NCBI GenBank assembly: GCA_005893275.1
Contig: VBOW01000013.1
Location: 69,387-133,386, forward strand
DNA length: 64,000 bases
Direction of reading: 5' to 3'
Origin: Candidatus Eiseniibacteriota bacterium
GTDB lineage: Bacteria > Eisenbacteria > RBG-16-71-46 > SZUA-252
The notes below the pieces were generated by a model. The model saw only the letters and a program-made list of their open reading frames with translations. It did no database searches and had not been told where the DNA came from. This document shows, in pieces, positions 1 to 27,030 of the stretch (position 1 is the first letter of the stretch; each line of letters starts with the position of its first letter). The translations under genes were made by a program, and so were the position numbers.

Positions 1-294
1 TATCTCCCCGCATCCCACAACGTCCTTCTGAAAATCGGATTCGAGCTCGGGCTTGTCGGACTGTTGGCCTTTCTCCTATTTTGTATCTCCTGGATCCGAA
101 TTGCGATACACCGATATCAGGCCGCTGCGAGTAGATCGGAGAAGGCGCTCATCGGTCTGGCCGGTTGCCTATTCATCGTATTCATCATACAGGGCGCGTC
201 AGGCAGCGGAATCGACAGTTTCCCCGCGAATGCGATCACGTTCTTCATCATGGGACTTGTAGCAGGAACGAAGGGGCGATGTACCGAAATCTGA
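1..294 (+). CDS. O-antigen ligase/polymerase (Wzy/WaaL-like) family membrane protein, C-terminal fragment (5' end outside window)
   Basis: Frame 1 is open from base 1: YLPASHNVLLKIGFELGLVGLLAFLLFCISWIRIAIHRY... The H-N..L...E.G..G motif followed by hydrophobic helices resembles O-antigen-ligase-family C-termini. It heads a glycan gene string. Confidence 0.45.
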   Translation, partial: YLPASHNVLLKIGFELGLVGLLAFLLFCISWIRIAIHRYQAAASRSEKALIGLAGCLFIVFIIQGASGSGIDSFPANAITFFIMGLVAGTKGRCTEI

Positions 295-4960: not shown

Positions 4961-4988
4961 ACGCGCTTGGCCCTGCCGAGGCGCGCCC

Positions 4989-6059: not shown

Positions 6060-7480
6060 GAATTATCGCGACCGATGCCGTCGCGATCGTGACCGCATAC
6101 ACCGCAGCGGCCGCGGTGAGATTCGGCGTGCCGGGGGTACTGCGAAACCCGGTGATCTGGGAGTCGTGCATTCTTCTCGGCATCGGGGGCCTCATCGTGA
6201 CGCTCGCGCTCGCGTGGCAGCAGGGCACGTATCGCAGGAGTGCGCTGACGGACGGCCACCGCGTGTATCCGCTGCTCGTGACCGCCTCGACTTACGCAAC
6301 CGTCGCGATGACCGTGCTCAGCCATTTCGCAGGTAGCCAGCTGCCCGCTTCGCGGGGGTGGCTCGTCGGATCTTGGAGCGGAAGCATTCTCGCGCTGTTC
6401 CTTTCACGGTTGATCTGGCGAGGGGTCGCGCTTCAGTGGCGCAAGGGCGGAGCCCTCATCAGGCGGGTTCTCATTGCTGGGGCAAACCAGCAGGGAATCG
6501 CGGTCGCACAACAGCTTCACGCTCCACTACGCCACGGAACAGTGGTCGTCGGATTCCTGGATGACTACCAGCGTCCCGGGACGGAAGTGCTACCGGGACT
6601 CGCGGTCGTCGGTCACCCCGGTTCGGCGCGGATCAAGGCCCGCGAGCTCAGAGCGGACGAGGTCGTGATCATCATGGGCGGCCTCGCCTGGGAAAGCCAA
6701 CGCCAGCTCGCGGAACTGGTCACCCGTCCCGACTCACCGCTCGAGGGGAAGATTTCCGCGACCTTCTACGACCTCCTTACCACTTCGGCAGAGCTGAGCC
6801 ATGTGGCGTACGTCCCTATGCTCAGCCTGAACCGCAACCGACTCTCGGGATTCAATGCGGCAACGAAGCGATCCCTCGATCAATCGATTTCGGGAGTGAT
6901 GCTCCTCCTCCTTGCCCCTCTCTTCGGGTATTGGAGGGTGAAGGCGTGGATTTGCCGCTCTCCAATGTTCGAATTTCAACCCGTCCTTGGTACGTGCGGG
7001 CGGCCGTTCCGTCTCGCCGGGCTGAATGTACGGCTCACGTGCTCGCCGGTCCTGGCGAGGCTCCCGGCTCTCTGGAACGTGTTCTGCCAGGATTTGAGTC
7101 TCGTCGGGCCTCGGCCCATCCGGATGGAAGAGCTGCCGGCGCACGAGCGATGGCGCGCGAATCTCTTCGCCGTGCGCTCAGGGCTCACGGGTCTCTGGCG
7201 GCTTCGGGACGCGGAGGATGCGGTTGAAGAGAGGGTCGCGCTGGATCTCTACTACGTCCGGAACTGCACGCTCATGCTCGATCTGCAAATCCTGGCTCAG
7301 ACAGGAAGAGAGTTGATTTGGCGCTGCATGGGAAGAAGAAGCCTGCTCGCGCGCTGGAACGCGAATGACGGGCCGAAGGCTGCCGTGCTCGAGGATGGAT
7401 CCCAAGCTCCAGAGGCTGCGAGCTGGGAAGATGTCTTCGAGGGCGACCCAGCCGAGGCAACGGGGGAGGGACTGCGCTGA
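6029..7480 (+). CDS. Large polyprenyl-phosphate glycosyl-1-phosphate transferase homolog (WbaP/WcaJ architecture) with degenerate catalytic domain
   Basis: N-terminal TM helices, Rossmann-like RVLIAGANQQGIAVAQQL, C-terminal sugar-transferase domain KRSLDQSISGVMLLLLAPL...DLSLVGPRP. The KFRTM block and the D-E of SLDELPQ are missing (see findings). Confidence 0.65.
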   Translation: MDRDWRRLRLGIIATDAVAIVTAYTAAAAVRFGVPGVLRNPVIWESCILLGIGGLIVTLALAWQQGTYRRSALTDGHRVYPLLVTASTYATVAMTVLSHFAGSQLPASRGWLVGSWSGSILALFLSRLIWRGVALQWRKGGALIRRVLIAGANQQGIAVAQQLHAPLRHGTVVVGFLDDYQRPGTEVLPGLAVVGHPGSARIKARELRADEVVIIMGGLAWESQRQLAELVTRPDSPLEGKISATFYDLLTTSAELSHVAYVPMLSLNRNRLSGFNAATKRSLDQSISGVMLLLLAPLFGYWRVKAWICRSPMFEFQPVLGTCGRPFRLAGLNVRLTCSPVLARLPALWNVFCQDLSLVGPRPIRMEELPAHERWRANLFAVRSGLTGLWRLRDAEDAVEERVALDLYYVRNCTLMLDLQILAQTGRELIWRCMGRRSLLARWNANDGPKAAVLEDGSQAPEAASWEDVFEGDPAEATGEGLR

Positions 7481-8082
7481 TGATGTACGACGAGGTGAAG
7501 GAGTGGCTGGCCGGTGCACGCAGAGCGATCGAGGCGGTGGATGTGGCAGCCGTGGCTCGGGCCGGTGAGGCTCTGGCCGACGTGCGGTTCCGCGGCGGGA
7601 CGATATTCGCAGCCGGGAACGGAGGGAGCGCAAGCACCGCGAATCATTTCGCGTGCGACCTCCAGAAAGCGACGAGGGTCGAGGGTCGGGGCACCCGCGC
7701 GATCTCTCTCAGCGACAACGCGGCCCTGCTCACCGCCTGGGGGAACGATCTCTCGTTTGACAGCGTGTTCGCCGAACAGCTGCGCCTGATGGCGGCGCGA
7801 GGCGACGCGCTCGTCCTGTTCTCCGTCAGTGGATCGTCGCCGAATCTCATCGAGGCGCTGTCGGTGGCGAGAGAAATGAATCTCATCACCGTGGCCCTCC
7901 TGGGACGGGACGGCGGACGCGCCGCGCTCATCGTGGATCACGCCGTGATCGTTGAGAGCGATGACTATGGCTGGGTCGAATCGGCCCACTTGGTTCTGGA
8001 GCATGTCCTCACCTGCTATGTCCGGCGCGCGATGAGAGAGCGTCTCGTGACAAACGGAGCGGTGGAGGAAGTCGTCCGTTGA
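7480..8082 (+). CDS. gmhA: D-sedoheptulose 7-phosphate isomerase (SIS domain)
   Basis: IFAAGNGGSASTANHFACDLQK, LVLFSVSGSSPNLIEAL, and about 200 aa length are typical of GmhA. The start overlaps the upstream stop by 1 nt (TGATG). Confidence 0.8.
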   Translation: MMYDEVKEWLAGARRAIEAVDVAAVARAGEALADVRFRGGTIFAAGNGGSASTANHFACDLQKATRVEGRGTRAISLSDNAALLTAWGNDLSFDSVFAEQLRLMAARGDALVLFSVSGSSPNLIEALSVAREMNLITVALLGRDGGRAALIVDHAVIVESDDYGWVESAHLVLEHVLTCYVRRAMRERLVTNGAVEEVVR

Positions 8083-8792
8083 CGGCGTCGTCTCCGGCGC
8101 GCAGTGCGCCGGTCGCCGCGTCTCCGTCGCGCGAGCGCTCGGACGACCCCTTCGCGCTGCCACCACGCTACATGGCCGCCGGCATCCGCGCCCAACTCCT
8201 CCTGAAGCGGTGCCTCGACGTTACAGGAGCGACACTGGGGCTTGCTCTTCTGAGCCCGGTGTTCGCTACGATCGCCGTTGTGGTCCGACTCAGTTCGGGG
8301 AATCCGATCCTCTACCGGTGGAAGGTCGTGGGAGTCCGGGGCCGCCCCTTCACCGGGTACAAGTTCCGCACCATGATTCCCGAAGCCGATGCGCACCGGG
8401 CAGGTTTGGAGTCGAGGAACGAGATGACATCGCCGGTGTTCAAGATCCGTCATGATCCGCGCGTGACCAGTGTCGGACGGTGGCTGCGCCGTTTCAGCCT
8501 CGACGAGCTGCCCCAGCTCTGGAGCGTTCTCAAGGGAGATATGAGCCTCGTGGGTCCGCGCCCCCCGTTGCAGGAAGAGTGGAGCCGATTCGAAGCGTGG
8601 CAACGTCGCAAGCTGTCCGTCAAACCCGGGATCACCTGCCTGTGGCAGATTTCCGGCCGATCGGACATCCGGGATTTCACCGAATGGGTCCGTCTCGACA
8701 TCGACTACATCGAACGCTGGACGCTCTGGCTCGATCTGAAGATCCTGCTCGCGACGATCGGGGCGATCGTCCGCTCGAGAGGAGCCTATTAG
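8079..8792 (+). CDS. Small monotopic phosphoglycosyl transferase (bacterial sugar transferase, PglC/WbaP-C-like), intact motifs
   Basis: [79 protein letters not shown] 8079 overlaps the gmhA stop; ATG 8172 is an alternative start. Confidence 0.85.
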
Positions 8793-9923
8793 ATGTCGAG
8801 GGCGCTGGTCACCGGCGGCGCTGGATTCATCGGTTCCCATGTGGTCGACGCGCTGCTCGCGCGCGGCATCGAGGTCCGGATCCTCGATCTCCTGACGCCT
8901 CCGGTCCACAACGGCCGTGTCCCCGAGTACGTTCCCGCCGATGCGGAATTCATCCGCGCCGACGTTCGCGATCCGGAATGCATGCGGAGAGCGCTCCGAG
9001 GAGTGCAGTACGTGTTTCACATGGCGGCGTATCAGGACTACCTCCCCGATTTCAGCACGTTCTTCACGACGAACGCGGCCTCCACGGCTCTCCTCTACGA
9101 GCTGATCGTTTCCGAGTCTCGAAACGTGGACTTGGTCGTGGTCGCTTCCTCCCAGGCGGTCTACGGCGAGGGTCGGCACCGATGCGCTGGCGATGGGGAC
9201 GTCTATCCCGGTCCGCGCTCTGAAGAGCAGCTAACACATGGCGAATGGGATCACGCGTGTCCGCGGTGCAGACGTCCGCTGGAGGTCGCATGGACGGACG
9301 AAACAGTGATGAACCCGCATAATCCGTACGGTCTATCCAAGCGGGATCAGGACGAAATCGCCGTGAAGCTCGGTGCGCGCTACAAGATCCCCAGCGTCGC
9401 ATTCCGGTACTCGATCGTTCAAGGACCGCGGCAATCCTTCCGGAACGCGTACTCAGGGGCCCTGCGCAATTTCACCGCGCAGCTCGGCTCCGGGATTCAG
9501 CCGGTAATTTACGAGGACGGGAATCAGCTGCGGGACTACGTCGGCATCCGCGACGTCGTTCGCGCGACGCTCCTCCCCCTGGAGAGGGCAGGAATGCACG
9601 GCGGCTCCTTCAATGTCGGGGGAGATCGCTCGATTTCGGTGCTCGACCTGGCGAAGCTGGTCGGGCATGCCGCCGGCATGGACTGCGAACCGCGAATCAC
9701 TGGCCTCTATCGAGTGGGGGACACGAGGCACATCCGCTCCGACATTTCCCGGCTCAAGAGCCACGGGTGGGCGCCTGCCGAGAGCCTCGCGGATGTAGTG
9801 CGGGGATATGTCGCCTGGGCCACCGCGCATCCGGAGTTTCACAACGCCGCCGCCGCGGCCCAGGAAAGGATGAGGAGCTTGGGGGTCCTGAGGGAGGCGA
9901 CGACTCCCCTCAGCTCGAAGTGA
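8793..9923 (+). CDS. NAD-dependent epimerase/dehydratase (extended SDR) with Cys/His-rich insertion
   Basis: GxxGxxG ALVTGGAGFIGSH, catalytic SS...YGLSK. About 40 aa are inserted (RHRCAGDG...HACPRCRR) between the Ser and the YxxxK. Confidence 0.8.
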   Translation: MSRALVTGGAGFIGSHVVDALLARGIEVRILDLLTPPVHNGRVPEYVPADAEFIRADVRDPECMRRALRGVQYVFHMAAYQDYLPDFSTFFTTNAASTALLYELIVSESRNVDLVVVASSQAVYGEGRHRCAGDGDVYPGPRSEEQLTHGEWDHACPRCRRPLEVAWTDETVMNPHNPYGLSKRDQDEIAVKLGARYKIPSVAFRYSIVQGPRQSFRNAYSGALRNFTAQLGSGIQPVIYEDGNQLRDYVGIRDVVRATLLPLERAGMHGGSFNVGGDRSISVLDLAKLVGHAAGMDCEPRITGLYRVGDTRHIRSDISRLKSHGWAPAESLADVVRGYVAWATAHPEFHNAAAAAQERMRSLGVLREATTPLSSK

Positions 9924-9932
9924 ACCTGAACG

Positions 9933-11543
9933 CTACCACCGGGCCTGTACGTCGATCGAGCCGGTGACGTGTTGGCGGTCGGCTCCTGGAGCATGCTCGG
10001 CGTTGCTTATGTCCGAGTATCCGACACGCCCCTCCAGGGACAGGCCGGCCGATGGCCGAAATGCTATCCCCGCGCTGGCGCTCCACGTGCGCTCGACGAC
10101 GCCCGAAAGAGGCACGTTGTCGACCTTTCCCAAAGCGGGATCCCAAGGCTGCCCGATCGACCCCTCCCCCTTTCGAACGCGCGCTGCGTGAATCGTCGCA
10201 GTCCAGGGCACACTCCAATCCAACCGAGCTTCCGTCCACGCCTGCTCGGCATCCGGCCCGAGCACATACCCGAGTGGGCGTCCCGCGAACTCGAAGTCGT
10301 GGCCGTGCCAGACCGTGTACACGAAGTCGTAGATCCGCGTGTACTCCGCCCGGACGGACGCGATCCGGTGGCCATTCAGAGCCCGCGCCGCGTGGAGACC
10401 GGTTTGCCATCCGATCTGCTTGGGCTTGAACGTCGACGCTATCGAGTAATCGTCGAGTAGGAACTCACCGTACCAGCGGAAACCGCGCGTCACGCTCCAG
10501 CTGAAGTCAACCGACGCCATGACGTTGTTCTTCTTGAATTTGTTCGTCGTATCCGTGGCTGCCGTGAACGCGTCCACGCGCTTTTCGATGAAGGTGTATG
10601 GGAAGGCGGGGATGAGATAATAGAAAAGTTGATCGGTGCCGTCGAAGCGCGCCTCCTCGGCCACTCCGAGCTCCAAGCCTTCACCGAGTCGGATACTCAT
10701 ACGGGACGCGGCATAGTAGAGCTGCTCGACAGGGTCCAGACTCGAGACGAACCAGGAGATTTCCAGGCCGCGCAAGATGCCGATGTCGAACCCGAGCCGG
10801 TCGAGCGCCGGCGCGGCATCCGAAACGCCCAGCGTCCCGGTGGCGCCTGGTCCCCATCGGACCCAGGAGTGGGCGAGCGTCGCACGTATGCGATGCGGCG
10901 CGTCGGCGCCTTCCAGCGCGAGGTAGGCGCGGTCGAGCCAGGCGTTGAAATCCACTCCCTCGGCGATCGCGAACTTGGTTCCGAAGTTGGGTGTGCCGTG
11001 GCCTCCTTGCGAGGCGGTACCGGCATACATATCGCCGAAGATCAACAAGCGGGTGGCCGCGCGCGCGCTCGCCTGAGCTCCGAGTCGATAGTCGCGATTC
11101 ACGGTGGGCCGGCGGGACGGGTCCTCCTGGTAGAGCGCCACCGCGTAGGGTGATACCTCGAGCCGACGATCCTCATCGTTCAACGTCCACCCTGGGGGCC
11201 TGGCCCCTGGGGCATTCGGAGATACTTCGCGCTCGATGCGCAAGAAAGAAGGGTCTCCTTCGGCGCCGCCCTTGCGCAGCCGTAAATCGCTCAGGTACTC
11301 GAGCGCTTCCCCGCGAGTCCACGGCCGCCGGCTGACGAAAAACCCTGGCGCTCCGAAGCGGAGCGCCAAGGACTCGAGGTCGGAGTAGATCGGGCTTTCG
11401 ACGGGGATTTCCTCAAGCGGGTCGTATACGGCGAGTGCGGGCCGTGGGATGGAGCAAAGCGCCCAAACGGAGCACGCCAGCGCGGCGATGGGGACGAGCA
11501 CTCGCTCCCGGTGCCACCGCGCCTTCCCTGAAGGTGGCCGCAT
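9933..11543 (-). CDS. Capsule-assembly Wzi-like outer-membrane protein (paralog 1)
   Basis: Signal peptide, then an N-terminal helical segment (PIYSDLESLALRFGAPG...RGEALEYL), then a long beta-rich region. Clearly paralogous in layout to 20519..22084. The family call is by eye. Confidence 0.5.
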   Translation of the reverse strand: MRPPSGKARWHRERVLVPIAALACSVWALCSIPRPALAVYDPLEEIPVESPIYSDLESLALRFGAPGFFVSRRPWTRGEALEYLSDLRLRKGGAEGDPSFLRIEREVSPNAPGARPPGWTLNDEDRRLEVSPYAVALYQEDPSRRPTVNRDYRLGAQASARAATRLLIFGDMYAGTASQGGHGTPNFGTKFAIAEGVDFNAWLDRAYLALEGADAPHRIRATLAHSWVRWGPGATGTLGVSDAAPALDRLGFDIGILRGLEISWFVSSLDPVEQLYYAASRMSIRLGEGLELGVAEEARFDGTDQLFYYLIPAFPYTFIEKRVDAFTAATDTTNKFKKNNVMASVDFSWSVTRGFRWYGEFLLDDYSIASTFKPKQIGWQTGLHAARALNGHRIASVRAEYTRIYDFVYTVWHGHDFEFAGRPLGYVLGPDAEQAWTEARLDWSVPWTATIHAARVRKGEGSIGQPWDPALGKVDNVPLSGVVERTWSASAGIAFRPSAGLSLEGRVGYSDISNAEHAPGADRQHVTGSIDVQARW

Positions 11544-11619: not shown

Positions 11620-12438
11620 CTAGTTCATCACCGCCTGCATGCGATCGCGAAGGTCGACCAGCCTGGGCCGCTCCGCATCGAGCATGTCGCCCGTCTTGGG
11701 CGTTTGGCCGCCGTGCGCGACCTCGCAGCGGGACCCCGGCCTCACCCGGGTCATCGCGCCCCGATGGGGACCGACATGGGCGGTTCCTTCGAGCACACAG
11801 ACGCACGTGCCCGCAGGCTGGGCGATCACGGCAAGGGTGGTGCTCGTCACGCGGACCGTGGCGTCGGGTGTCGTGATCGCGAGGCGCGCGCCGTGGAAGC
11901 GCCTCCCGGTGGTGACGCGCAGCAGTCCGCCTGCCACATTGGCCCGGGCGCCTCGACCGAACCAGCGTCCGGGGGGCGGCGGGAGGACCATCTCGGTTCC
12001 GGGGGAGAGCTGCATCGCGAGGACCCCGGAGCTGACCAGATCCAGCTCCTTGGTGCTCTCGAGTCGAATTCGGGAGCCCGGCCTGATCCGACGCGTCAGC
12101 TCGGCCGTCTCGCGAACCGGGATCGAGAGGCCGTTCACGACGACGTTACCGGAGCCTCCGCTCGGGAGCGCGGTCCAGCGCGGCGGCTGGTTGAGCGCCG
12201 CGACGAGGAACGCGACCGCCGCGGCGGCCGAAAGTCCGGAGGCCCAACCAAGGATGGGACGCCGCCGGTGAGGCGAGATCGCCACGCCACGGGGGCGGTC
12301 GCCTACGCTGCCGGAGACGAAATCCCTCTTGAGGCGCTCGCGAAAGGAAGGCTCCGCGCGCGGAGGGGTCAGGCCGCGGATTCTTCCCAAGACCTCGGGC
12401 TCTCCGTCCCCTGAGTTTTCAGCTTCGCGATCGATCAC
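11620..12438 (-). CDS. FecR-domain anti-sigma factor (single TM)
   Basis: 4-nt overlap with the upstream ECF sigma gene. Central TM ILGWASGLSAAAAVAFLVAAL; C-terminal FecR-like beta region. Confidence 0.6.
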   Translation of the reverse strand: MIDREAENSGDGEPEVLGRIRGLTPPRAEPSFRERLKRDFVSGSVGDRPRGVAISPHRRRPILGWASGLSAAAAVAFLVAALNQPPRWTALPSGGSGNVVVNGLSIPVRETAELTRRIRPGSRIRLESTKELDLVSSGVLAMQLSPGTEMVLPPPPGRWFGRGARANVAGGLLRVTTGRRFHGARLAITTPDATVRVTSTTLAVIAQPAGTCVCVLEGTAHVGPHRGAMTRVRPGSRCEVAHGGQTPKTGDMLDAERPRLVDLRDRMQAVMN

Positions 12439-13031
12439 TTGATCGTGCTCTCCAGCAGCTTTCCCAGCTCCGCCAAGGCGCGGGAGTAGCGCTTGCGCGC
12501 GGCAACCGGGGTCGTACCTGTCACCGATGCGATCTCCTCGTAGCTGAACCCTTGATACTCGCGCAATACCACGGCGGCCCGGAGCGATTCCGGTAATCTG
12601 CCGATCGCATCCTGCACGAGCTTCTCGCGCTCCGCGGCGATCAGCTCGCCTTCGGGGTCCTCCCGATTCGAGGGAATGGCTCCGTCCCCGTGGTCCGGAT
12701 CATCGATCGATATCGATTGCCGCGAGAGCCGGTACGCGCCCGATCTCCACAGGTCGCGGCATACGTTGTAAGCGATCGTCGTGACCCACGCCCCGGGATC
12801 GCGATCCGGATCCAGGGTATGAGCCGCTCGGTGGAGCTTGAGAAAGACCTCCTGGGTCGCGTCCTCTGCCCAGTGCCTGTCGCCGAGCAATCGGTACACA
12901 AGGCCGTAGACGTGATCGAAATGCTGCTCGAAGAACGCGGCAAGCGCTTGCGGCTCACGCCGTCGGACCGCCTCTAATACCACTACGGACGGGGCCGCCG
13001 TCTGTGTCCGATCGCGAATGCTGCTTGTCAC
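12435..13031 (-). CDS. RNA polymerase ECF-type sigma-70 factor
   Basis: Region 2 HVYGLVYRLLGDRHWAEDATQEVFLKLHRA. Region 4 REYQGFSYEEIASVTGTTPVAARKRYSRALAEL. GTG start with GGAG upstream. Confidence 0.85.
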   Translation of the reverse strand: MTSSIRDRTQTAAPSVVVLEAVRRREPQALAAFFEQHFDHVYGLVYRLLGDRHWAEDATQEVFLKLHRAAHTLDPDRDPGAWVTTIAYNVCRDLWRSGAYRLSRQSISIDDPDHGDGAIPSNREDPEGELIAAEREKLVQDAIGRLPESLRAAVVLREYQGFSYEEIASVTGTTPVAARKRYSRALAELGKLLESTIK

Positions 13032-13057: not shown

Positions 13058-13144
13058 CGTGGGAGCCGGTGCCCGAGGGGTCAGGGCTGATCGTAGGCGA
13101 AGCATGCCTGTCGGCCGGCTCGCCATCTCACGGAGGGTTCCGCC

Positions 13145-13720
13145 ATGGTCGCACTCGCCATCAGCTGGCTCAAGGACGCGGACCAAGCACTGCAAGCCGC
13201 GAAGACTCAATCGAAACCGGCCCTCCTCGATTTCAGCGCCGCGCCCCTCTGAGGTGGTTGCGCTCGGCTGGAAGCCGAGGTCTATCCGAACGAGCGGGTC
13301 GTAAACCTGATCAGCTCCGAATTCATCCCCGCCAAGATTCACATCAAAGAGCAACCCCAGGTCTTCAAGCGCTTCGGAGCCCTGTGGACCCCAACCCAGC
13401 TCATCATGAGCCCGGATGGGGTCGAAAGCCATAGGATCGAGGGTTTCCTGCCCGCGGAGGACTTACTCGCCCAGCTCGAGCTGGGGCTCGGGAAAGTATG
13501 GTTCAAGCAGGAGAAGTACGCCGTGGCGGAGAAGCACTTCCGGGCGGCCGCCCAAGAGTATCCTTCAACCGAAGCCGCCCCGGAAGCTGTCTATTGGGCC
13601 GGGGTCTCAGCCTATAAAGCATCGAACGATCCCAAGAAACTGAAGGAGACGCATCAGCTCTTGCAAAGCAGGTATCCCTCGAGCCAGTGGACCCGCAAGG
13701 CGATGGTCTGGGCGGGTTAG
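13145..13720 (+). CDS. Thioredoxin-fold (Thioredoxin_7-like) protein with in-frame TGA at the first Cys of CxxC; candidate selenoprotein (Sec at 13250-13252)
   Basis: ATG 13145 with GGAGGG 7 nt upstream. The frame is continuous with track ORF 13406..13720 apart from one TGA. Translation ...KPALLDFSAAPL-U-GGCARLEAEVYPNERVV...FGALWTPTQLIMSPDGVE... matches the Trx-fold layout. A hairpin follows the TGA. Confidence 0.6.
13263..13279 (+). promoter_or_regulatory. Candidate bacterial SECIS hairpin
   Basis: Perfect 6-bp stem CTCGGC / GCCGAG with apical loop TGGAA. It starts 10 nt after TGA 13250-13252. Confidence 0.4.
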
Positions 13721-14688
13721 GCCCGCTCCGCGCCGGAACCTAGCTCCAGCACCTCACGCCATTCGCTTTTCCTGACGCGCGCGGCCCGCGAGATCTTCCG
13801 GATCGCGATCCGCGCGCCCAGGCTGAGCTCCCCGTCGCGCGAGGGAATCGTCCGCGCATAGCGTCGCATGTGGCGGAGCAGGACCGCGGCGTCCTGTCGC
13901 GCGCCCAGCATATTCTGGAGCCTTCCCAAGTGCTTCGCGCGGCGCCGGGCGCCCGGACCCTCCAGCTCCACGAAGTATTCCACGGCATAGCGGGCACCCT
14001 TGATCGCGATCCGCAGCGCATGGACGTTTTCCGCCGTGGTCTTCCGCTTCGCCTCATCGCAGGCTTCGAGCATTCGCCGATCCCACACCGCCACGACCCT
14101 GGGCCCCGCGATGTAGGCGGGCGCCCTCGCGGCCCGCGTGTCCGGGGTCACCCGCCGCAACTCGATCCACGGTTGCGCGTGTCTTCGGAATCTCGAGAAC
14201 CTCGGTGAGTCGAGCCTCTCGAGCAGGGTCACACGTTTGCGCGCGCGCTTGATCTCGAGCAGACTCGTGAAAACGAAGAGCGCCGCCCGCTCCGGCTCCG
14301 GGGCATCTGCCGCCATCCGTCTCACCCGATCCAGCTCGACATCGCAATCGCGAACGCTTCCGAGCGCCCGTCCGATCCATCGAAGCTCCTGGCGCCATTC
14401 CTGTCGAGTTTCTCGGGGAATTGCCGCGGCGAAGACCCGGAGCGCCGTCCTGAGCCGCCGCGTCGCGACGCGCATGTCGTGGACGTGCTCGGGATTGACT
14501 CCGAGCCGCGCCCCGGCCTCATGCCAGAACAGGCGTGCGAGCTGCCGGCCGATGCTCTTCAACGCCACGTCGGCCAAACGGTCGCCCTGGTAAAGAGAGA
14601 ACGCGCTCTCATCGAGCCGGGGAGCGCGCTCAAGCGCCCCGCCGGGCTCCAGGCGGAGACGGGCGCGCTCGATCGCGGCGGGCCTCAC
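13717..14688 (-). CDS. CHAD domain protein (polyphosphate-granule associated family)
   Basis: HDMRVATRRLRTALRVF and the repeated helical CHAD pattern (HALRIAIKGARYAVEYF). GTG 14688 overlaps the sixA stop (GTGA); ATG 14730 is an alternative start. Confidence 0.75.
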   Translation of the reverse strand: MRPAAIERARLRLEPGGALERAPRLDESAFSLYQGDRLADVALKSIGRQLARLFWHEAGARLGVNPEHVHDMRVATRRLRTALRVFAAAIPRETRQEWRQELRWIGRALGSVRDCDVELDRVRRMAADAPEPERAALFVFTSLLEIKRARKRVTLLERLDSPRFSRFRRHAQPWIELRRVTPDTRAARAPAYIAGPRVVAVWDRRMLEACDEAKRKTTAENVHALRIAIKGARYAVEYFVELEGPGARRRAKHLGRLQNMLGARQDAAVLLRHMRRYARTIPSRDGELSLGARIAIRKISRAARVRKSEWREVLELGSGAERA

Positions 14689-15191
14689 GTGGCGGCGATT
14701 TCGCGGAGCGCTCCGGGCTGGATCAGCCATTCCAACGTTCCGCGGCCCGGCCCCGGAGAGTCGGGGAAGCTCACGAGCGCGGCCCCGCCTTTCTTGTAGA
14801 CCAGCCCTGCCTGGCATTTCTCGCCGACCAGGAGATAGGAGGTGAATCCGCTCAAATGCGGCTCGTGCCCGACGAGCGCCGCGCACTCCGCGCGGAGCCC
14901 CTGGACGTAGGCGAGAAGGCGGCCGAAATCACCGCCCGGCACCAAATCCTCGCAGAGATCAATCTTCGTCCTGGGGGCGACGGCGTCGCGCAGGATCTCG
15001 GCGGTCTGCCGGGCACGGATGAGGGGGCTCGACACGATGCGAACGGGCTTCGGCGCGAATTCCTTGAGCCCGCGCGCCGCCAGGCGGAATTTGTGCATTC
15101 CCTCGGGGGTGAGCGGACGGTCCTCGTCGCGCTTGAAGGCGGGATCGCCGTGCTCGACGGCGATGGCATGGCGTACGATGAGCAGTTCCAT
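14685..15191 (-). CDS. sixA: Phosphohistidine phosphatase SixA
   Basis: MELLIVRHAIAVEHG...RPLTPEGMHKFRLAARGL...IVSSPLIRARQTAEIL...LVGHEPHL, about 168 aa. Confidence 0.8.
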   Translation of the reverse strand: MELLIVRHAIAVEHGDPAFKRDEDRPLTPEGMHKFRLAARGLKEFAPKPVRIVSSPLIRARQTAEILRDAVAPRTKIDLCEDLVPGGDFGRLLAYVQGLRAECAALVGHEPHLSGFTSYLLVGEKCQAGLVYKKGGAALVSFPDSPGPGRGTLEWLIQPGALREIAAT

Positions 15192-15241
15192 TGCGACCTC
15201 CAGTTCTACGGAAACTCTAGCATATGACGTAAGATAGGAGC

Positions 15242-16819
15242 ATGCCGACTTCCAAGACCCGGGCCTTCCCGATCCGCTGCGCCGGCATGGATGTCGGAAG
15301 CAACGCGCTGCGCCTCGCCATCGCCGAATTCAAGAGCCCGACCCGGTACAAGATCCTCGAAAGAAGGCGGGTACCGGTGCGGCTGGGGGAATCCGTGTTC
15401 CAAACGGGGCGGATCGCGCCGGAAACCCTCGAGGCGGCCCTCGGAGCGTTCCGGGACTTTCGGCGCCGCATGGAGGACAACGGCGTCGTGCTCCACCGCG
15501 CGGTCGCGACCAGCGCGACCCGCGAAGCGAAGAACCGCGCGGCGTTCCTGGAGCGCGTGCACAGCCAGACGGGGATCGATCTGGACTTGATCCCGGGAAC
15601 GGAGGAGGCGCGCCTGGTCGCGCTCGGTGTCCGCGCCAAGCTATCCCTCGCGCGAGGGACCTCGCTCATACTGGACGTGGGTGGCGGGTCGAGCGAGCTG
15701 GCCCTCGTGGAGCGCGGCCAGATCCTCCTCGTGGAATCGCACGACCTGGGTTCGGTGCGATTGCTGGAACGGGTGGGGAATGCCCAGGGCGCTCGCTTCC
15801 TTCGCTTCTTGCGCGAGACGATCCACGCATCCCGATTTCCCCTTCTGGACTCGCTGCGCGGGAGCGCCGTGTCCAAGCTCATCGGAACCGGGGGAAATAT
15901 CGAGGCGCTCGCCTCCCTGAGCGCGAACGGTCCGGGCCGGGCCGGGGGTCGGGGCGCTTCCCGCGATTCGGGCGAGCGAAGGCCTGTGCCGCTTTCCCTC
16001 GGGCGCCTGAGAGCGCTCCTCGCCGCCCTGGCGGAGCTCAACGCCGAGGAGCGGGCTCGGAAATTCGATCTTCGGCCCGACCGCGCCGACGTGATCGTGC
16101 CGGCGGGCGCCATCTTCGAGTTCGTCGCGACCCGCACGAGGGCTCGAGAGGTCATCGTGCCGTTCACGGGGTTGGTCGACGGGGTCCTTCTCGATTTGGC
16201 CCGGGAAGCCGGAGCGTCGGGAAAAAAGGAGCTCGAGACCTCGCAGACCCTGAACGCCGCGCAGGCCGTCATGCGCAAGTACGGGTCCGATGCCAGGCAT
16301 CCCCGCCATGTGGCCGGCCTGGCGGTGTCGCTCTTCGATCAGCTCAAACCAAACCACGAGCTGGGCAGGCGCGACCGCCTCCTGCTCGAGATCGCGGGGC
16401 TTCTCCACGAAATCGGCAACTTCATCTCGGCGTCGGGGCACCACCGGCACGCGTACTATATCATCTCCGAAACGCCGATCCTGGGCCTGAGCGACGAGGA
16501 GCTTCACATCGTGGCGTGTGTCGCGCGGTACCACCGCAAGGCGCCTCCGGACATGAGCCACCCATGCTTCGCGGAGCTTTCGGAGCGTGCCCGCGAGCGG
16601 GTTCGCGCGTTGGCCGCGATCCTGCGATTGGCGGACGCGTTGGACCACGACCATCGTCAGCGAATCGTGGCCATCACCGCGACCAAGCACGGCTCGGAGC
16701 TGATGCTCCAGGCGCGCACGCGAGGGGACGTGACACTCGATGAATGGTCGGTCGGTCAGAAGGGGGACCTTTTCAAGGAGGAGTTCGGCCTGGAGCCCGT
16801 GCTGATGACGCATGGTTGA
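15242..16819 (+). CDS. ppx: Ppx/GppA-family exopolyphosphatase with C-terminal HD-like domain (copy 1)
   Basis: GMDVGSNALRLAIAE, ATSATREAKN, DVGGGSSEL. C-terminal LLHEIGNFISASGHHRHAYYII...ARYHRK. Confidence 0.85.
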   Translation: MPTSKTRAFPIRCAGMDVGSNALRLAIAEFKSPTRYKILERRRVPVRLGESVFQTGRIAPETLEAALGAFRDFRRRMEDNGVVLHRAVATSATREAKNRAAFLERVHSQTGIDLDLIPGTEEARLVALGVRAKLSLARGTSLILDVGGGSSELALVERGQILLVESHDLGSVRLLERVGNAQGARFLRFLRETIHASRFPLLDSLRGSAVSKLIGTGGNIEALASLSANGPGRAGGRGASRDSGERRPVPLSLGRLRALLAALAELNAEERARKFDLRPDRADVIVPAGAIFEFVATRTRAREVIVPFTGLVDGVLLDLAREAGASGKKELETSQTLNAAQAVMRKYGSDARHPRHVAGLAVSLFDQLKPNHELGRRDRLLLEIAGLLHEIGNFISASGHHRHAYYIISETPILGLSDEELHIVACVARYHRKAPPDMSHPCFAELSERARERVRALAAILRLADALDHDHRQRIVAITATKHGSELMLQARTRGDVTLDEWSVGQKGDLFKEEFGLEPVLMTHG

Positions 16820-18383
16820 CCTCGCGCCGGCCCCGCCGGCCGCACCCGGTGTCACCAACGCGCCTCCCATCCTCTCCGTGATCGACGTGGGAGCGAGCGG
16901 CGTGCGGATGCTGCTCGCCGAGCTCAAGGCGGACGGATCCGCGCGCATCCTCGAGGACGTGCAGAAGCCGCTCGCGCTCGGCCGCGAGACGTTTCGCACC
17001 GGGACCCTGTCGGCGGCGAGCATCCAGAAGGCGGTCAACATCCTCCGCCAATATCGCGCCATGATGGACGGCTACGGCGTGACCCACACACGCGCGGTGG
17101 CGACGAGCGCCGTGCGCGCGGCCCTGAACCGCGACACGTTTGTCGACCGGGTATTTCTCGCGACGGGAATCGAGGTCGAGGTCATCGAGGGCTCTCAGGA
17201 GACCCTGCTCACGTTCGCGGCGGTGCAGCAGGCGCTCGGGGCGCAGCCCGACTTCGCCCGGGAGCATTCGTTGATGTTCGAGCTCGGCGCGGGCGCGACC
17301 GAATGGGCCCTCATGCGCGACGGGGAGGTGGCCGGTTCCCTCACGTACGATCTCGGCACGCTCAAGATGCGGGAGCTCCTCCGCGCGGAAAGTGGCGACC
17401 GGCGGGCCATGACGCGTCTCATCCAGCACAACGTTCGCGAGATGATGCACGCGGTGAAGCGGACCCTTCCCTTCGAGAAGGTGGCGAACCTGATCGCCAT
17501 CGGCCCCGAGGCGCGCTTCGCGGCGCGCGCCCTCGGAGGGGAGGGGGAGCTTGCCGCGGTCTCGGCGAAGGATCTAAGAACCCTGGCGGACCGGATCCTC
17601 ACGATGACCCCTGCCGAGGTCGCGGCATCCTTCTCCATCACCAGTCTCGAGGCCGAATCGCTGGCGCCGGCCTTCCTCGCCTACGCCGAGCTGATCCGCC
17701 TGAATCCCGTCGACCGGCTCCTCGTGGCGCGCGCGAGCATCCGCGACGGGCTCCTGCTACAGATGGGAAAGTCGATCCAGAGCGGCTCGGCCGTGTTTTT
17801 TCCCGAGCAGACGATCACGGCGGCCCTGAACCTCGCGCGCAAGTACCACGCGGACGAGCGCCACGGGCTCCACACGGCCGCGCTCGCGCGTGCCATATTC
17901 GACGCGACGCACGCGCAGCACGGGATGGGGGAAGGGGAGAGGCTGCTGCTCCAAGTCGCCTCGATCGTGCATGACATCGGAACCTACGTGGCCGCCCGCG
18001 GGCACCATCGCCACGCGTACTATCTCCTCATCAATTCCGAAGTGTTCGGTCTATCCAGGATGGACCTTGAGATCGTGGCCAACGTTGCCCGGTACCACCG
18101 CAAGGGCGGTCCGCAGTCCGATCATCCGGCGTATGCGGCGCTCCCGAGGGGGGCCCGACTCACCGTGAATCGGCTCTCGGCCATCCTCCGAGTCGCCGAC
18201 GCTCTGGACAAGGGACATGCGCAGCGGATCCAGAATCCGAAGATCTCGATCGAAGACGCCGAGCTTCGGATCGACGTCGAGGGGGCCGAAGACGTGGCGC
18301 TCGAGCGGTTGACCCTCGATCAGAAGGGGGCCCTTTTCGAGGAAGTATTCGGGCTGAAACCGGTGTTGCGGGAGACCGCGTGA
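16812..18383 (+). CDS. Ppx/GppA-family exopolyphosphatase with C-terminal HD-like domain (copy 2)
   Basis: 8-nt overlap with copy 1. IDVGASGVRMLLAE, ATSAVRAALN. C-terminal IVHDIGTYVAARGHHRHAYYLL...ARYHRK. Confidence 0.85.
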   Translation: MVDLAPAPPAAPGVTNAPPILSVIDVGASGVRMLLAELKADGSARILEDVQKPLALGRETFRTGTLSAASIQKAVNILRQYRAMMDGYGVTHTRAVATSAVRAALNRDTFVDRVFLATGIEVEVIEGSQETLLTFAAVQQALGAQPDFAREHSLMFELGAGATEWALMRDGEVAGSLTYDLGTLKMRELLRAESGDRRAMTRLIQHNVREMMHAVKRTLPFEKVANLIAIGPEARFAARALGGEGELAAVSAKDLRTLADRILTMTPAEVAASFSITSLEAESLAPAFLAYAELIRLNPVDRLLVARASIRDGLLLQMGKSIQSGSAVFFPEQTITAALNLARKYHADERHGLHTAALARAIFDATHAQHGMGEGERLLLQVASIVHDIGTYVAARGHHRHAYYLLINSEVFGLSRMDLEIVANVARYHRKGGPQSDHPAYAALPRGARLTVNRLSAILRVADALDKGHAQRIQNPKISIEDAELRIDVEGAEDVALERLTLDQKGALFEEVFGLKPVLRETA

Positions 18384-20488
18384 CCGACGGCGCCGCCCCG
18401 TCCGAGCCGCGCACCTTGAGCCGCGCCCTGACCTGGCTCGGCTTCAACGGGCGGGTGCTCGAGGAGGCGCAGGATCCGACGTTGCCCGTTCTGGAACGCG
18501 CTCGATTCCTCGGCATCTTCTTCTCGAACCTGGACGAGTTCTTCATGATCCGCGTCGCGGGGCTCCGCGAGGCGATGGCGGCCGGCGTGGACCGCGAGGG
18601 GCCGGGGGAAGAGGCCACAGCGGCGATCCTGGCGCAGATCGGGCAGCGCTGCCAGGACCTGGTGCGGCTCGCCTACGGGACCTATGAGCGCGAGATCGGG
18701 CCCACGCTCCGCGAGAGCGGGGTCCATTTCCTGAGCGCCGAGGAATTCACGCCGAAGGAGCGCGGGTTTCTGGACCGCCTCTTCGCGCGTGAGATCATGC
18801 CGATCTTGACGCCGGCGGCGGTCGAGCCCGGGCTGCCCTTTCCGCACGTCACCAATTTCTCGCTCTGCTTCGCGATCCAGCTTGCACGCGAAGGCTCCTC
18901 GGAGCGTTTCGCGCTGGTCCAGCTTCCCAGGCAGTACACGCGATGGATCCAGGTTGGAAGCCGTGGCGGCTTCCACTTCGCTTTCCTCGAGGACGTCGTT
19001 CGCCACCATCTGGCCGAGTTGTTCCCGGGCCACGAAATCCGGGAGGCGGCTCTGTTTCGCGTGACGCGCGACGCCGACTTCGCGACCGACGACCAGGAGG
19101 CCGAGGATCTCCTCGACGCGGTGAAGCATGTCTTGAAGCAGCGCCGGGGCGGCGATCCGGTGCGCCTCGAACTGGAGGCCTCGGCGAGCGGGGAGATCGC
19201 CGAACGGCTGGCGGCGTTCTTCCGGCTCGAGCCGGAGAGCGTCTATCGACTCCCCGGGCCGCTCGACCTCAAGTTCCTCATCGAATTCACTCGAGTCACG
19301 TCGCTCCCCGCGCCGCGGGCGGCGCCCTGGCCGCCGCAGCCCTCGCCCGACATCCCGTCCGGCGACGCGATCTGGGAGGCGATCGCCGAGCGCGACTTCC
19401 TTCTGTTTCATCCCTACGAGAGCTTCGAGCCCGTGCTTCGGCTCCTCCGGCTCGCGTCGGAGGAGCCGTCCGTGCTCGCGATCAAGCAGGTGCTCTACCG
19501 CACCGCATCCAACTCGGAGGTCGTGCGCGCGCTCGAGCGAGCCGCCGAAAACGGAAAGCAGGTGACCGCCCTCCTCGAGCTTCAGGCGCGGTTCGACGAG
19601 GAGCGGAACGCGAATTGGGCGCAGCGGCTCGAGGACGCTGGAGTGCAGGTGCTCTACGGCCTCGCGGGGCTCAAGACCCACGCGAAGGCGCTCCTGATCG
19701 TGCGGCGCGGTCCCGGAGGAATCGAGCGGTACGCCCACCTGGGCACGGGGAACTACAACGAGCGGACGGTCCTCGAGTACTCCGATTTGAGTCTTCTCAC
19801 CGCCAACGAGGATATCTGCTCCGATCTGACCGCGTTCTTCAACGTCGTCACGGGCTATTCGGAACCGCTTCCCTGGAGGAGGATCGCGATGGCGCCCCTC
19901 GGGCTGCGCTCCCGAATCCTGAGCTTGATCCGGCGCGAGATCGAGAAATCGACGCCGGAAGATCCGGGCCAGATCCGGGCGAAAATGAACGCGCTCGTGG
20001 ATGAGCCAATCGTCGACGCGCTTTACGAAGCCTCGAACGCCGGGGTGAGAATCCTCCTCAACGTGCGCGGCTCCTGTCTCCTGCGCCCGGGCGTGAAAGG
20101 AATGAGCGAGCACATCCGCGTCGTTTCGATCGTGGACCGGTTTCTCGAGCACAGCCGCATCTTCGAGTTCCGGAACGGGGGCGACGTGGAGACGTTCCTC
20201 GGGAGCGCGGACTGGATGCCGCGCAACCTGGACCGCCGCGTGGAGCTCGTGTTCCCCGTCATCGACCCGGAGCTGCGCGCGCGCCTGGCGCGCATCCTCG
20301 ACGTGCTCTTCGCGGACAACGTGAAGGCGCGGGAGCTCCGTGCGGACGGATCCCTGGCGAAGCGGTTGAGCCGCCGCCGGCCCGTTCGCGCGCAGGAGGT
20401 GTTCTGGGAGGAGGCGCGGGCGCGCGCGGAGGGGCGCGGCGAGGCGGACCGCGGCGCCTTCGTTCCGCTTCGAAGCGTGCCGGACTAG
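18380..20488 (+). CDS. ppk: Polyphosphate kinase 1
   Basis: About 700 aa. NGRVLEEAQDPTLPVLERARFLGIFFSNLDEFFMIRV, KTHAKALLIVRR, HLGTGNYN, RFLEHSRIF. GTGA overlap with ppx copy 2. Confidence 0.95.
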   Translation: MTDGAAPSEPRTLSRALTWLGFNGRVLEEAQDPTLPVLERARFLGIFFSNLDEFFMIRVAGLREAMAAGVDREGPGEEATAAILAQIGQRCQDLVRLAYGTYEREIGPTLRESGVHFLSAEEFTPKERGFLDRLFAREIMPILTPAAVEPGLPFPHVTNFSLCFAIQLAREGSSERFALVQLPRQYTRWIQVGSRGGFHFAFLEDVVRHHLAELFPGHEIREAALFRVTRDADFATDDQEAEDLLDAVKHVLKQRRGGDPVRLELEASASGEIAERLAAFFRLEPESVYRLPGPLDLKFLIEFTRVTSLPAPRAAPWPPQPSPDIPSGDAIWEAIAERDFLLFHPYESFEPVLRLLRLASEEPSVLAIKQVLYRTASNSEVVRALERAAENGKQVTALLELQARFDEERNANWAQRLEDAGVQVLYGLAGLKTHAKALLIVRRGPGGIERYAHLGTGNYNERTVLEYSDLSLLTANEDICSDLTAFFNVVTGYSEPLPWRRIAMAPLGLRSRILSLIRREIEKSTPEDPGQIRAKMNALVDEPIVDALYEASNAGVRILLNVRGSCLLRPGVKGMSEHIRVVSIVDRFLEHSRIFEFRNGGDVETFLGSADWMPRNLDRRVELVFPVIDPELRARLARILDVLFADNVKARELRADGSLAKRLSRRRPVRAQEVFWEEARARAEGRGEADRGAFVPLRSVPD

Positions 20489-20518: not shown

Positions 20519-22084
20519 TCAATACCTCACGTCTGCCGCGAATCGCGCGAGCCAGGCCTCGCGGTCGTGCCCTCCCAGATTTCCTTCGTTTCGAATGCGG
20601 CGAAATCCGACGCCGACGCTCAGGTCCACGTTGTCGCGCGGCATCCACCTCGCGTCCCCCCACACCTCGCGACGCTCCTCCACGATTCCGGAGAGCCCCA
20701 CCGTCGAGACCGCTCCCTGGGAGGGATACCAGGGCACGCCGAGCCTTCCCTCCCCGTGATTGGTGAAATCGCCGCTCCAGCGGAGCTGCCACTCCCGCGA
20801 GAGGTCGAACGCCGACTCGAGGAATACGTTCTCCGCGTCGGGCCCCAAGGCGAAGCCGAGCGGGCGGCCCCGGTAGATGAAGTCCTGACCGTAGTCCACG
20901 CTGTAGGTGAAGTTTCGAACGCGCGTGTATTCGCCGAGAAAATGCACGTAGTGGGCGCCGTACGGGCGCTCGCTTCGAAACCCGAGCTGGTACGCGATCC
21001 GGTTCGGCATGTTGGCGCTCTCGGTGGCGTAATCGTCCACGAGCAGCTCGCCGTAGAGCGTCAGTCCGCGCCAGACGCGGAACGAGGCGTCGGCCGAGGC
21101 CATCGCGTTCGCCCGCTCGAGCGCGCGCAGCGAGTCCCTGGAGGCGTCGCGAATCCGGATCCGCTCGACGATCGTGTAGGGAAGGAGCCCCGAGGCGTAG
21201 AGAAGGTCGATTCCGCTCGCCGCGTAGCGCGCGGCCTCCGCGAGCCCGACCGTGATCCGCGGCGCGACATCGAGCTCGAGCCGATGCGCCGCGAGGAAGC
21301 GGTGGTCGGCGGCCGAGACCACGCCGGTCATCGCGGTGCCCGTCACGCTGACCCTGCCGCGGACGGCGCCCTGCATCAAGAAAAAGGTCATCGGCCCCGC
21401 CGCGTCGGAGAGAAGAAGGGTGCCCCGCCGGCCCGGACCCCAGCGGACCGCGTCGTACCCCAGGGCGGCCGTGAGGCGGTTCACGCGCCCGGTCAGCTCG
21501 CCGCGCAAGACCGAGGCCTCGAGGTCCGTATGGAGCGCGATGGCGTCGATGAACTCTCTCTGGCCCCGGATCCGGGTCACGCCCAGCTCCTCGTACGCTC
21601 CGAACCCCGGCCAAAGCTGAAGGCTCATCCGTGCGGCTATGGAGGATTCGTCCCGGAGCCGGAAGTGCCCGGCCGCGCGCTTCTCGTCGAAATCGCCGCG
21701 CGCGTGCCCCGCGAGCGCGACGCGAAAGCGCTGGTCACGCATGCCCAGGTCGAGAAGCGGTCCGGTTTCCCTCTCCCCCGGTTCGGAACCCGTCTCGGCG
21801 ATCTCGCGCGCCAACTCGCGCGTAAGCCGCCGGAAATGCAAATCCGATTCCAGCGCCGGGAAGGCTTGCCGGGCTTCCAGGAGCGCCCGCGCGATATCCA
21901 CGCGCGCCAGAGGCCTCGTGTGGATCGGGTAGGATGGAACGAGACCTCGCGCGACGAGGGCTTCGAGGTCTTCATAGAGGGCGTGCGTGGTGGGAAGGAA
22001 CTCCGCAGGCTCCGCGAATGCGGCGGAGAATCCCGCGCCGAGCGCGAGCGCGCCCAGGAGGAGCCCGGCCAAGGCGAAGCGCAT
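20519..22084 (-). CDS. Capsule-assembly Wzi-like outer-membrane protein (paralog 2)
   Basis: Signal peptide MRFALAGLLLGALALGAGFSAAFA, then ALYEDLEALVARGLVP...RVDIARALLEA and a beta-rich body. Same organisation as 9933..11543. The opposite-strand ORF 20510..22216 is judged a shadow ORF. Confidence 0.5.
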   Translation of the reverse strand: MRFALAGLLLGALALGAGFSAAFAEPAEFLPTTHALYEDLEALVARGLVPSYPIHTRPLARVDIARALLEARQAFPALESDLHFRRLTRELAREIAETGSEPGERETGPLLDLGMRDQRFRVALAGHARGDFDEKRAAGHFRLRDESSIAARMSLQLWPGFGAYEELGVTRIRGQREFIDAIALHTDLEASVLRGELTGRVNRLTAALGYDAVRWGPGRRGTLLLSDAAGPMTFFLMQGAVRGRVSVTGTAMTGVVSAADHRFLAAHRLELDVAPRITVGLAEAARYAASGIDLLYASGLLPYTIVERIRIRDASRDSLRALERANAMASADASFRVWRGLTLYGELLVDDYATESANMPNRIAYQLGFRSERPYGAHYVHFLGEYTRVRNFTYSVDYGQDFIYRGRPLGFALGPDAENVFLESAFDLSREWQLRWSGDFTNHGEGRLGVPWYPSQGAVSTVGLSGIVEERREVWGDARWMPRDNVDLSVGVGFRRIRNEGNLGGHDREAWLARFAADVRY

Positions 22085-22312
22085 GGCCGGGCATCCTATC
22101 GGCGCCCGGTCCACGGGTCAAACCCAAGGAAGCCCGCGGCCGTGTGGACGGATGACCACAGGGATGTAAACCGGGCGCCGCGGGCGTCCCTGTCCGGTAC
22201 GGTGATAGGGGTCTAACTCATGAAATCACAGCGCGATGATTCATGGCACGGGGGCTGCATTCGGCCGGGCATGGCCCCAAGTCCGGACCCCACATCGTTC
22301 AGGAGGAGGAAC

Positions 22313-27005: not shown

Positions 27006-27030
27006 CCGTACCCCGCGCGCGGGGGGAGTG

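Follow-up and report, generated by a model that had tools for sequence, protein, structure and literature searches.

An intact gene with one in-frame UGA

At positions 13145–13720 of the forward strand of the 64-kb stretch of DNA analysed here (the window; contig VBOW01000013.1 of a Candidatus Eiseniibacteriota bacterium, 65.7% GC) lies a single 191-codon gene whose reading frame, followed directly on the sequence by translation of 13145–13723, contains one in-frame stop only, a TGA at codon 36. This gene very probably encodes a selenoprotein, that is, a protein in which the UGA is read as selenocysteine (Sec); the claim is drawn throughout from sequence comparison and a structural model. The program-made list of open reading frames (ORFs) reports only 13406–13720 (104 aa) at this locus. 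An earlier model reading of the letters (below, the sequence-only reading) had proposed instead that the frame runs uninterrupted from the ATG at 13145 across the single TGA, and all of its coordinates agree with the sequence and its translation. That reading had also named additional frame disruptions as the mark of a pseudogene; there is none in the gene and none in the 83 loci of relatives described below. The gene is intact. Its features, and those of its neighbours, are listed in Table 1. The Shine-Dalgarno-like sequence of the window has a counterpart, AGGAGG, at the equivalent place 5' of the start in two relatives (L001 and L002).

Table 1. Coordinates of the predicted selenoprotein gene, its parts and the adjacent genes in the window (SECIS, selenocysteine insertion sequence; ECF, extracytoplasmic function)
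Feature	Position	Strand	Basis
Shine-Dalgarno-like GGAGGG	13132–13137	+	7 nt 5' of ATG 13145; direct reading
Start codon ATG	13145–13147	+	direct reading
Complete predicted selenoprotein coding sequence, 191 codons including Sec36	13145–13720	+	full-length tblastn matches cross the TGA in 80 species genomes
UGA predicted to be read as Sec, residue 36, attacking residue of the U-G-G-C motif	13250–13252	+	TGA in 83/83 relatives; aligns with Cys of homologs and of thioredoxin 1nw2
Resolving Cys39, TGC	13259–13261	+	Cys in 83/83 relatives
Putative bacterial SECIS-type hairpin, stem CUCGGC/GCCGAG, loop UGGAA, within codons Ala40–Glu45	13263–13279	+	fits the bacterial SECIS model
Thioredoxin-fold domain, residues 1–112, DsbD-gamma/DsbH/Thioredoxin_7 type, no signal peptide	13145–13480	+	Pfam, ortholog model, Foldseek
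W-T-P-T cis-proline loop (Pro83)	13385–13396	+	aligns with thioredoxin I-P-T
C-terminal five-helix TPR-like tail, residues 113–191, YbgF/CpoB/BamD-like	13481–13717	+	weak Pfam/NCBIfam, PDB, model
Terminal stop TAG	13718–13720	+	frame open up to there
Divergent ECF sigma factor	12435–13031	−	Pfam Sigma70_r2/r4_2
FecR-like anti-sigma	11620–12438	−	Pfam FecR
CHAD protein	13717–14886	−	
SixA-like histidine phosphatase	14685–15191	−	
Two tandem Ppx-GppA genes	15242–16819, 16812–18383		
Ppk1	18071–20485		

Among species-representative genomes, 225 were found by a scan to encode a relative of this protein; the best 80 of these comprise Eisenbacteria, several classes of Acidobacteriota, Gemmatimonadota, Ignavibacteria/Bacteroidota, Verrucomicrobiota (Verrucomicrobiia), Binatia, Myxococcota (Myxococcales) and others. 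Their tblastn matches extend over the TGA. The relatives' loci number 83 (L001–L083), which together with the window make 84 loci, or 84 Sec forms. TGA stands at the identical codon, followed by x-x-Cys, in 83 of 83 relatives from at least eight phyla at 50–85% identity; since the best 80 are the nearest relatives of the window protein, this measures conservation of the TGA across a clade and not Sec use throughout the superfamily. An AT-rich relative at 61% protein identity is among those with the TGA, and a member of a distant subfamily (L091, 1022–1618, 38% identity) keeps it at the same column. In a codon alignment of the 83 distinct sequences both flanks of the TGA show conserved amino acids together with synonymous drift. 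The resolving Cys, which the sequence-only reading had described as kept, is invariant in all 83, where it is encoded by TGT 45 times and by TGC 38 times, and this codon usage indicates that it is conserved at the protein level only. In a syntenic Eisenbacteria contig a separately called 35-aa ORF stops at the same TGA. The distant subfamily member L091 has in addition a C-terminal Cys-Thr-Ala-Cys motif, which the window protein does not share.

The position of the TGA within the protein was examined by alignment with homologs that have an ordinary codon there. A protein search gave 574 homologs; the greater part are 137–146 aa long, cover about 73% of the query and begin just past the TGA column, and a smaller number reach about 190 aa. 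In the full-length homologs the TGA column holds Cys (in APRCAGC), Trp, Arg or Ser, each one nucleotide from TGA. It corresponds to the first Cys of WCGPC in thioredoxin 1nw2 in a PDB sequence search, and it aligns with Cys of the full-length CxxC cluster representatives as well. The alignment with Cys-form homologs that had been called for thus places the TGA at the nucleophilic Cys of CxxC, where it had been proposed to lie. An exhaustive search with the part of the protein that follows the TGA gave, at E ≤ 1e-10, 454 clusters made at 50% identity. Of the 150 best, 61 are of 145–160 aa and 25 of 185–200 aa, and the full-length representatives (at least 175 aa) are mostly CxxC proteins. The public records of the relatives are truncated or misnamed, as had been anticipated for standard annotation pipelines, under names such as "hypothetical", "BamD", "TolA-binding protein" and "thioredoxin fold domain-containing protein, partial". 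The homolog alignment contains no conserved restart codon or ribosome-binding site 3' of the TGA, and gene callers choose differing starts.

A few individual sequences depart from this pattern. The protein record P0001 shows "W" at the Sec position, where the DNA has TGA (L001, 1109–1111), an artefact of translation with genetic code 4; judging from P0001, the Trp at this position in P0020, P0034, P0037 and P0288, which lie on short contigs, is probably the same artefact. Two loci have a sense codon in place of the TGA together with an intact hairpin (below), CGA (Arg) in L086 (10001–10594, on a 979-kb contig) and TCA (Ser) in L087 (1104–1718); these are either recent point changes, that is, loss of Sec, or sequencing errors. 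The contig of L020 (DASRAN010000088.1), labelled Patescibacteria group bacterium, is nearest in sequence to the Acidobacteriota/Polarisedimenticolia copies and is probably mis-binned.

A SECIS-type hairpin just past the UGA

The sequence-only reading had noted a perfect 6-bp hairpin ten nt after the TGA, and its coordinates are exact: CTCGGC (13263–13268), TGGAA (13269–13273) and GCCGAG (13274–13279), 17 nt in all, beginning 10 nt 3' of the TGA. It also fits the published model of the bacterial SECIS (bSECIS), which, as given in the Figure 2 legend of a 2026 review (PMC13188914), has a loop of 3–9 nt, a stem of 4–16 bp, a G within the first two loop positions, a UGA-to-loop distance of 16–37 nt and a minimum free energy of at most −7.5 kcal/mol. 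The window hairpin has a loop of 5 nt (UGGAA, or GGA if a U-A pair closes it), a stem of 6–7 bp and a G at loop position 2 (the loop fits N1-G-G-N-N2), and the free energy calculated for the 17-mer is −9.8 kcal/mol.

Codon usage on the hairpin in the 83 relatives is far more restricted than the protein would demand. Arg is CGG in 83 of 83 (one of six possible codons), Leu is CTG and Ala GCC in all 83, and Glu is GAG in 82; the first Ala is GCT in 70 and GCC in 13. Synonymous entropy is 0 at CGG, CTG and GCC and 0.09 at GAG, and elsewhere in the gene it is approximately at background, including the codons of the invariant W-T-P-T and Y-W-x-G-V motifs. The core 4 bp of the stem are invariant in 83 of 83, and the AT-rich relative has the same 26 nucleotides at the hairpin. 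Over the 84 Sec forms the hairpin energy ranges from −10.0 to −6.8 kcal/mol (median −9.8). In the distant L091 the hairpin is a different one, GGAUAC-CGUGAC-GUAUCC, whose loop lies 23 nt past the UGA and which also complies with the bSECIS model. In the Cys forms L084 and L085 the same R-L-E-A-E is written CGA CTT/CTA GAG GCG GAA, and the hairpin is missing there (−1.3 kcal/mol), as it is in the Cys form L088 (−1.8 kcal/mol); the hairpin is absent in three of the five Cys/CxxS forms examined. Its association with the TGA is strong, not absolute. As judged from these sequence comparisons, the hairpin is under selection at the RNA level.

The minimal SECIS of E. coli fdhF is a 17-nt upper stem-loop that lies 11 nt from its UGA and has a G-U-containing loop bound by SelB. 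The window hairpin resembles it in its 17-nt length, its location within the coding sequence, its distance of 10 nt from the UGA and the G residues in its apical loop, and differs from it in sequence (loop UGGAA versus GGUC) and in having no bulged U in its preferred register.

Other foldings of the region were considered and set aside. An alternative bulged-A register suggested by RNAalifold is less stable in the window sequence (−6.8 versus −10.3 kcal/mol), and a possible lower stem between the codons of Ser30/Ala31 and those of Cys39/Ala40 has no RNAalifold support. A scan of the whole window at Rfam gathering thresholds gave no match, hence no curated SECIS or tRNA-Sec family.

Decoding of the UGA

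We hold with high confidence that 13145–13720 is one intact gene encoding a 191-residue selenoprotein, and several observations that weigh against this have to be set beside it. The UGA-to-loop spacing, 16 nt, is at the lower bound of the bSECIS model. Of the 1422 TGA trinucleotides of the window, 59 (4.1%) precede a perfectly paired hairpin that has 6 bp or more and obeys the same loop and spacing rules, and the 61-nt region gives a folding z-score of −0.58, not unusually stable for its composition, and the hairpin alone is weak evidence. There is no covariation support among the 83 relatives; the stem is invariant, which leaves covariation statistics uninformative either way. Two of the forms without Sec are imperfect controls: L090 (334–909) retains the 5' half only (CGG CTG GAA, −5.6 kcal/mol), and L089 (185–760), a CxxS form, has at the SECIS position a hairpin of different sequence, UCGCGC-UGGA-GCGCGA (−9.4 kcal/mol), with the UGGA loop retained; these exceptions may be what is left after a conversion of Sec to Cys. 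The relatives are all metagenome-assembled genomes or metagenome contigs. Finally, selA, selB, selD and a tRNA-Sec gene were found neither in the window nor in about 1 Mb of flanks of the 83 relatives' loci. It is the comparative data that decide, because none of the 83 relatives lacks the TGA and zero synonymous entropy is found only on the hairpin.

The absence of Sec machinery in the covered sequence was established in several ways. ARAGORN found no tRNA-Sec in the window or in 54 of the relatives' loci, and tblastn with E. coli SelA, SelB and SelD as probes against the window and the 83 loci gave one generic GTPase match only. A Pfam survey of about 45 further ORFs of the window contained no selenium-related gene. 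In the window and the relatives' flanks the machinery genes are simply unlinked to the gene. Use of Sec is documented in the literature for Acidobacteria (Acidobacteriota), one of the phyla in which the gene is chiefly found; searches of the literature for selenoproteins of Gemmatimonadota or Eisenbacteria returned nothing relevant.

This absence speaks for the likeliest of the alternatives, in which the hairpin aids recoding of the UGA to a residue other than Sec, either Cys, brought by SelB on a Sec-like tRNA(Cys), or an amino acid from a suppressor or allo-tRNA with a UCA anticodon. SelB-dependent UGA-to-Cys recoding is mentioned in the literature, and unusual suppressor-type tRNAs are among what is reported for Acidobacteria in PMC5389517. 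Such systems are rare exceptions, however, and for a Cys outcome a costly UGA and SECIS would be pointless when a change of one nucleotide gives TGY, yet the TGA is kept in every one of the 83 relatives; the Cys forms, moreover, are a separate clade without the element. We regard recoding to another residue as improbable.

That the TGA is a true stop, so that the locus is a pseudogene or makes a 35-residue peptide and, by separate translation, a C-terminal fragment of about 100–140 residues, is highly improbable. Standard gene callers yield exactly such fragments, and databases name the fragment as a stand-alone BamD- or TolA-binding-like protein, but 83 lineages at 50–85% identity would not all have acquired a nonsense mutation at one codon and kept the frame otherwise intact. 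The 35 upstream codons are under in-frame selection at the protein level, no start codon or ribosome-binding site is conserved past the TGA, and, as judged from the model, a thioredoxin fold that lacks β1 and the active-site turn would not be expected to fold. An assembly or sequencing error at a real TGC or TGT, or genome-wide reassignment of TGA to Trp or Gly (codes 4 and 25), as the database proteins with W at the TGA column and the one relative labelled Patescibacteria might hint, has a negligible probability, since the TGA occurs in independent assemblies from many projects, the single W that was checked (P0001) is TGA in the DNA translated by a pipeline with code 4, and TGA terminates half of the confident ORFs of the window.

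The last point can be put in numbers: of 30 other confident ORFs of the window, 15 end at TGA as a normal stop, so that recoding at the gene would be site-specific, with no genome-wide reassignment. Four other in-frame TGAs of the window, at 30013, 57643, 61307 and 45423 (the last on the reverse strand), were considered as further Sec codons and rejected; none is surrounded by a redox motif, and the first three are ordinary gene ends between adjacent same-frame genes annotated by Pfam. The one at 30013 ends a large fusion protein (26941–30012, forward strand) with FAD-linked oxidase, 4Fe-4S dicluster and CCG domains (GlcD/GlpC-like), which has no internal TGA; a DUF2231 gene comes next in the same frame. 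Elsewhere, Fe-S oxidoreductases of the GlpC type are known as a family of selenoproteins. A candidate recycling partner of the selenoprotein is a pyridine-nucleotide-disulfide oxidoreductase of 311 aa, the size of a thioredoxin reductase, which is encoded 19 kb away at 32700–33632 on the reverse strand and is unlinked to the gene.

Protein architecture, known families and genomic setting

With Cys in place of Sec, the product scores above Pfam gathering thresholds for four thioredoxin families, Thioredoxin_2 (2e-10), Thioredoxin_7 (2.1e-8), Thioredox_DsbH and Thioredoxin, in agreement with the Thioredoxin_7-type layout that had been read from the letters. The last 80 residues give weak Pfam TPR/YfiO signals and NCBIfam matches to OM_YfiO and ybgF that are under cutoff, and a PDB sequence search returned thioredoxins for residues 13–112 and YbgF/CpoB (2xev, 6g5s) for residues 112–186. 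An AlphaFold2 model was made of the ortholog P0001 in place of the window product (mean predicted local distance difference test score 95.2, predicted template modelling score 0.91); it has a thioredoxin fold with the Sec position just before a helix at residues 36–44, and five helices follow at 102–188. The nearest folds to its thioredoxin domain found by Foldseek are the DsbD-gamma-like 3f9u and 1uc7 and the DsbH protein 2ju5; thioredoxin is matched as well. W81, T82 and P83 of the cis-Pro loop are conserved at 90% or more in alignment A1; in alignment A3 and among the 83 Sec forms they do not vary. The Pfam matches, the position of the motif at the N-terminus of α1, the cis-Pro loop and the Foldseek matches are those of a thioredoxin-fold thiol:disulfide oxidoreductase with its β-α-β-α-β-α-β-β-α order, and the modelled fold is that of a thioredoxin domain followed by a helical tail.

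If the gene encodes a selenoprotein, the hairpin would act as a bacterial SECIS when a ribosome meets the UGA, recruiting SelB·GTP·Sec-tRNA(Sec) so that Sec is inserted and termination does not occur. We infer the involvement of SelB and Sec-tRNA, and Sec as the inserted residue, from the evidence above. The product would be a cytoplasmic protein, a location suggested by the fact that it begins directly at the thioredoxin domain, with an active site Sec36-Gly-Gly-Cys39 that faces the cis-Pro83 loop and would cycle between selenol/thiol and selenenylsulfide states while reducing or exchanging disulfides of client proteins. By analogy with the chaperedoxins CnoX/YbbN, which join thioredoxin and TPR domains, the tail of about 80 residues is probably a surface that binds clients or partners. 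The cytoplasmic location, the reductase direction and the role of the tail are likewise inferred.

Thioredoxin-fold proteins with Sec in place of Cys in a UxxC motif are a long-established kind of selenoprotein. The window product was compared with the known families. A 2026 catalogue (PMC13188914) lists a class "Thiol:disulfide interchange protein", recognized by PF13098 plus UxxC and represented by WP_011366075.1, and with a PF13098 score of 41.4 bits (cutoff 27) and the motif U-G-G-C the window product falls within the operational definition of that class. The two share PF13098, a UxxC motif with Sec as the attacking residue, Cys-form homologs and a SECIS hairpin within the coding sequence just past the UGA; PF13098 ranks first among the Pfam domains of the window product. 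They differ in that the catalogued class comes from anaerobic Deltaproteobacteria (Geobacter, Syntrophus) whereas the window family occurs in soil and aerobe-rich phyla, has a TPR-like tail and has no signal peptide, and this taxonomic range and architecture suggest that the family is set apart from the WP_011366075.1 class as it is described. No entry of the catalogue has TPR, BamD or DUF255 features.

NCBIfam holds further selenoprotein models with a Thioredoxin_7/DsbD-gamma-like domain, VPGUxxT types 1 and 2 (NF041382, NF041383), Trx7/PDZ (NF041199) and TsoB (NF045694), and these match the window product locally, over residues 5–111. Their scores, 36, 29.7, 18.5 and 38 bits, are far under the respective cutoffs of 275, 350, 300 and 805 bits, and we reject membership in any of them; no NCBIfam model reaches its cutoff for the window product. 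The motifs differ (VPGUxxT, CxxU or UxxxxU versus AP[ML]UxGC in the window family), as do the sizes and architectures (proteins of 287–572 aa with PDZ or rhodanese fusions).

In the order of its domains, thioredoxin N-terminal and TPR C-terminal, the family resembles CnoX/YbbN (PDB 3qou, 3qdn), the only solved structures whose match to the P0001 model took in both of its domains (Foldseek E 3e-6 over about 200 columns). The match is a loose one in its measures (TM-score 0.43–0.45 normalized to the query and about 0.30 to the target, root-mean-square deviation about 11 Å), and the sequence search of the PDB, taken up to E = 1, did not return YbbN. The tail of the window family is about 80 residues long and YbgF/CpoB-like, whereas that of CnoX is about 170. 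Some CnoX proteins, for example that of Caulobacter, carry a catalytic CxxC and act as reductases according to the literature, and one relative of the window protein is named "thioredoxin-like negative regulator of GroEL" by JGI; in the literature searched there was nothing on a Sec-containing CnoX. By these sequence comparisons the relatives form an apparently uncatalogued family within the UxxC thioredoxin-fold selenoproteins. More tentatively, and with rather less than even confidence, we propose that it is an uncatalogued phylum-spanning family of cytoplasmic "seleno-chaperedoxin-like" thioredoxin(UxGC)+TPR proteins, present in at least 225 species-level genomes of mostly soil and sediment lineages and hidden as misnamed fragments, whose SECIS is frozen across phyla by dual constraint.

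The sequence-only reading had drawn attention to the divergently transcribed ECF sigma/anti-sigma pair as a hint of stress regulation. The pair is there, as Pfam matches confirm, and it is syntenic in L002, but it occurs at only about 6 of the 84 loci, all of the Eisenbacteria lineage. No partner gene is common to more than 8 of the 84 loci; as no neighbour is conserved more widely, we reject a link to ECF sigma factors as a property of the family, and the context is a weak ground for a regulatory link. Directly 3' of the selenoprotein gene, and convergent with it, lies a block of polyphosphate-metabolism genes (13717–20485; Table 1) whose order is the same in the related contig L002. Paralogous Wzi-like capsule-assembly genes (9933–11543 and 20522–22117, both on the reverse strand) flank the region of sigma factor, thioredoxin-like and polyphosphate genes, and further upstream (4932–9920) are sugar-transferase, SIS, GHMP-kinase and epimerase genes. 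No ORF in 1–4300 passed the coding filter, based on G+C content at third codon positions, that was applied to the rest of the window.

The finding leaves the understanding of Sec decoding unchanged and is not conceptually surprising; its consequences lie in annotation, evolution and biochemistry. Hundreds of genomes have the gene in split or truncated form under the wrong name of an outer-membrane assembly factor, and a hidden Markov model of the family combined with a Sec-aware rule would correct this and add a selenoprotein to phyla whose use of selenium is poorly charted. For evolution the hairpin would be a clean natural example of simultaneous selection on protein and RNA, the same six codons being frozen across phyla, with the element absent, half-decayed or replaced in the Cys-form relatives. 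For biochemistry, a Sec-containing thioredoxin domain joined to a TPR-like tail suggests a redox partner of high reactivity for specific clients. If the family does span phyla as proposed, Sec use has been under-counted in under-studied, largely uncultured lineages, and the SelB specificity of those lineages could be probed with the invariant 17-mer as it stands.

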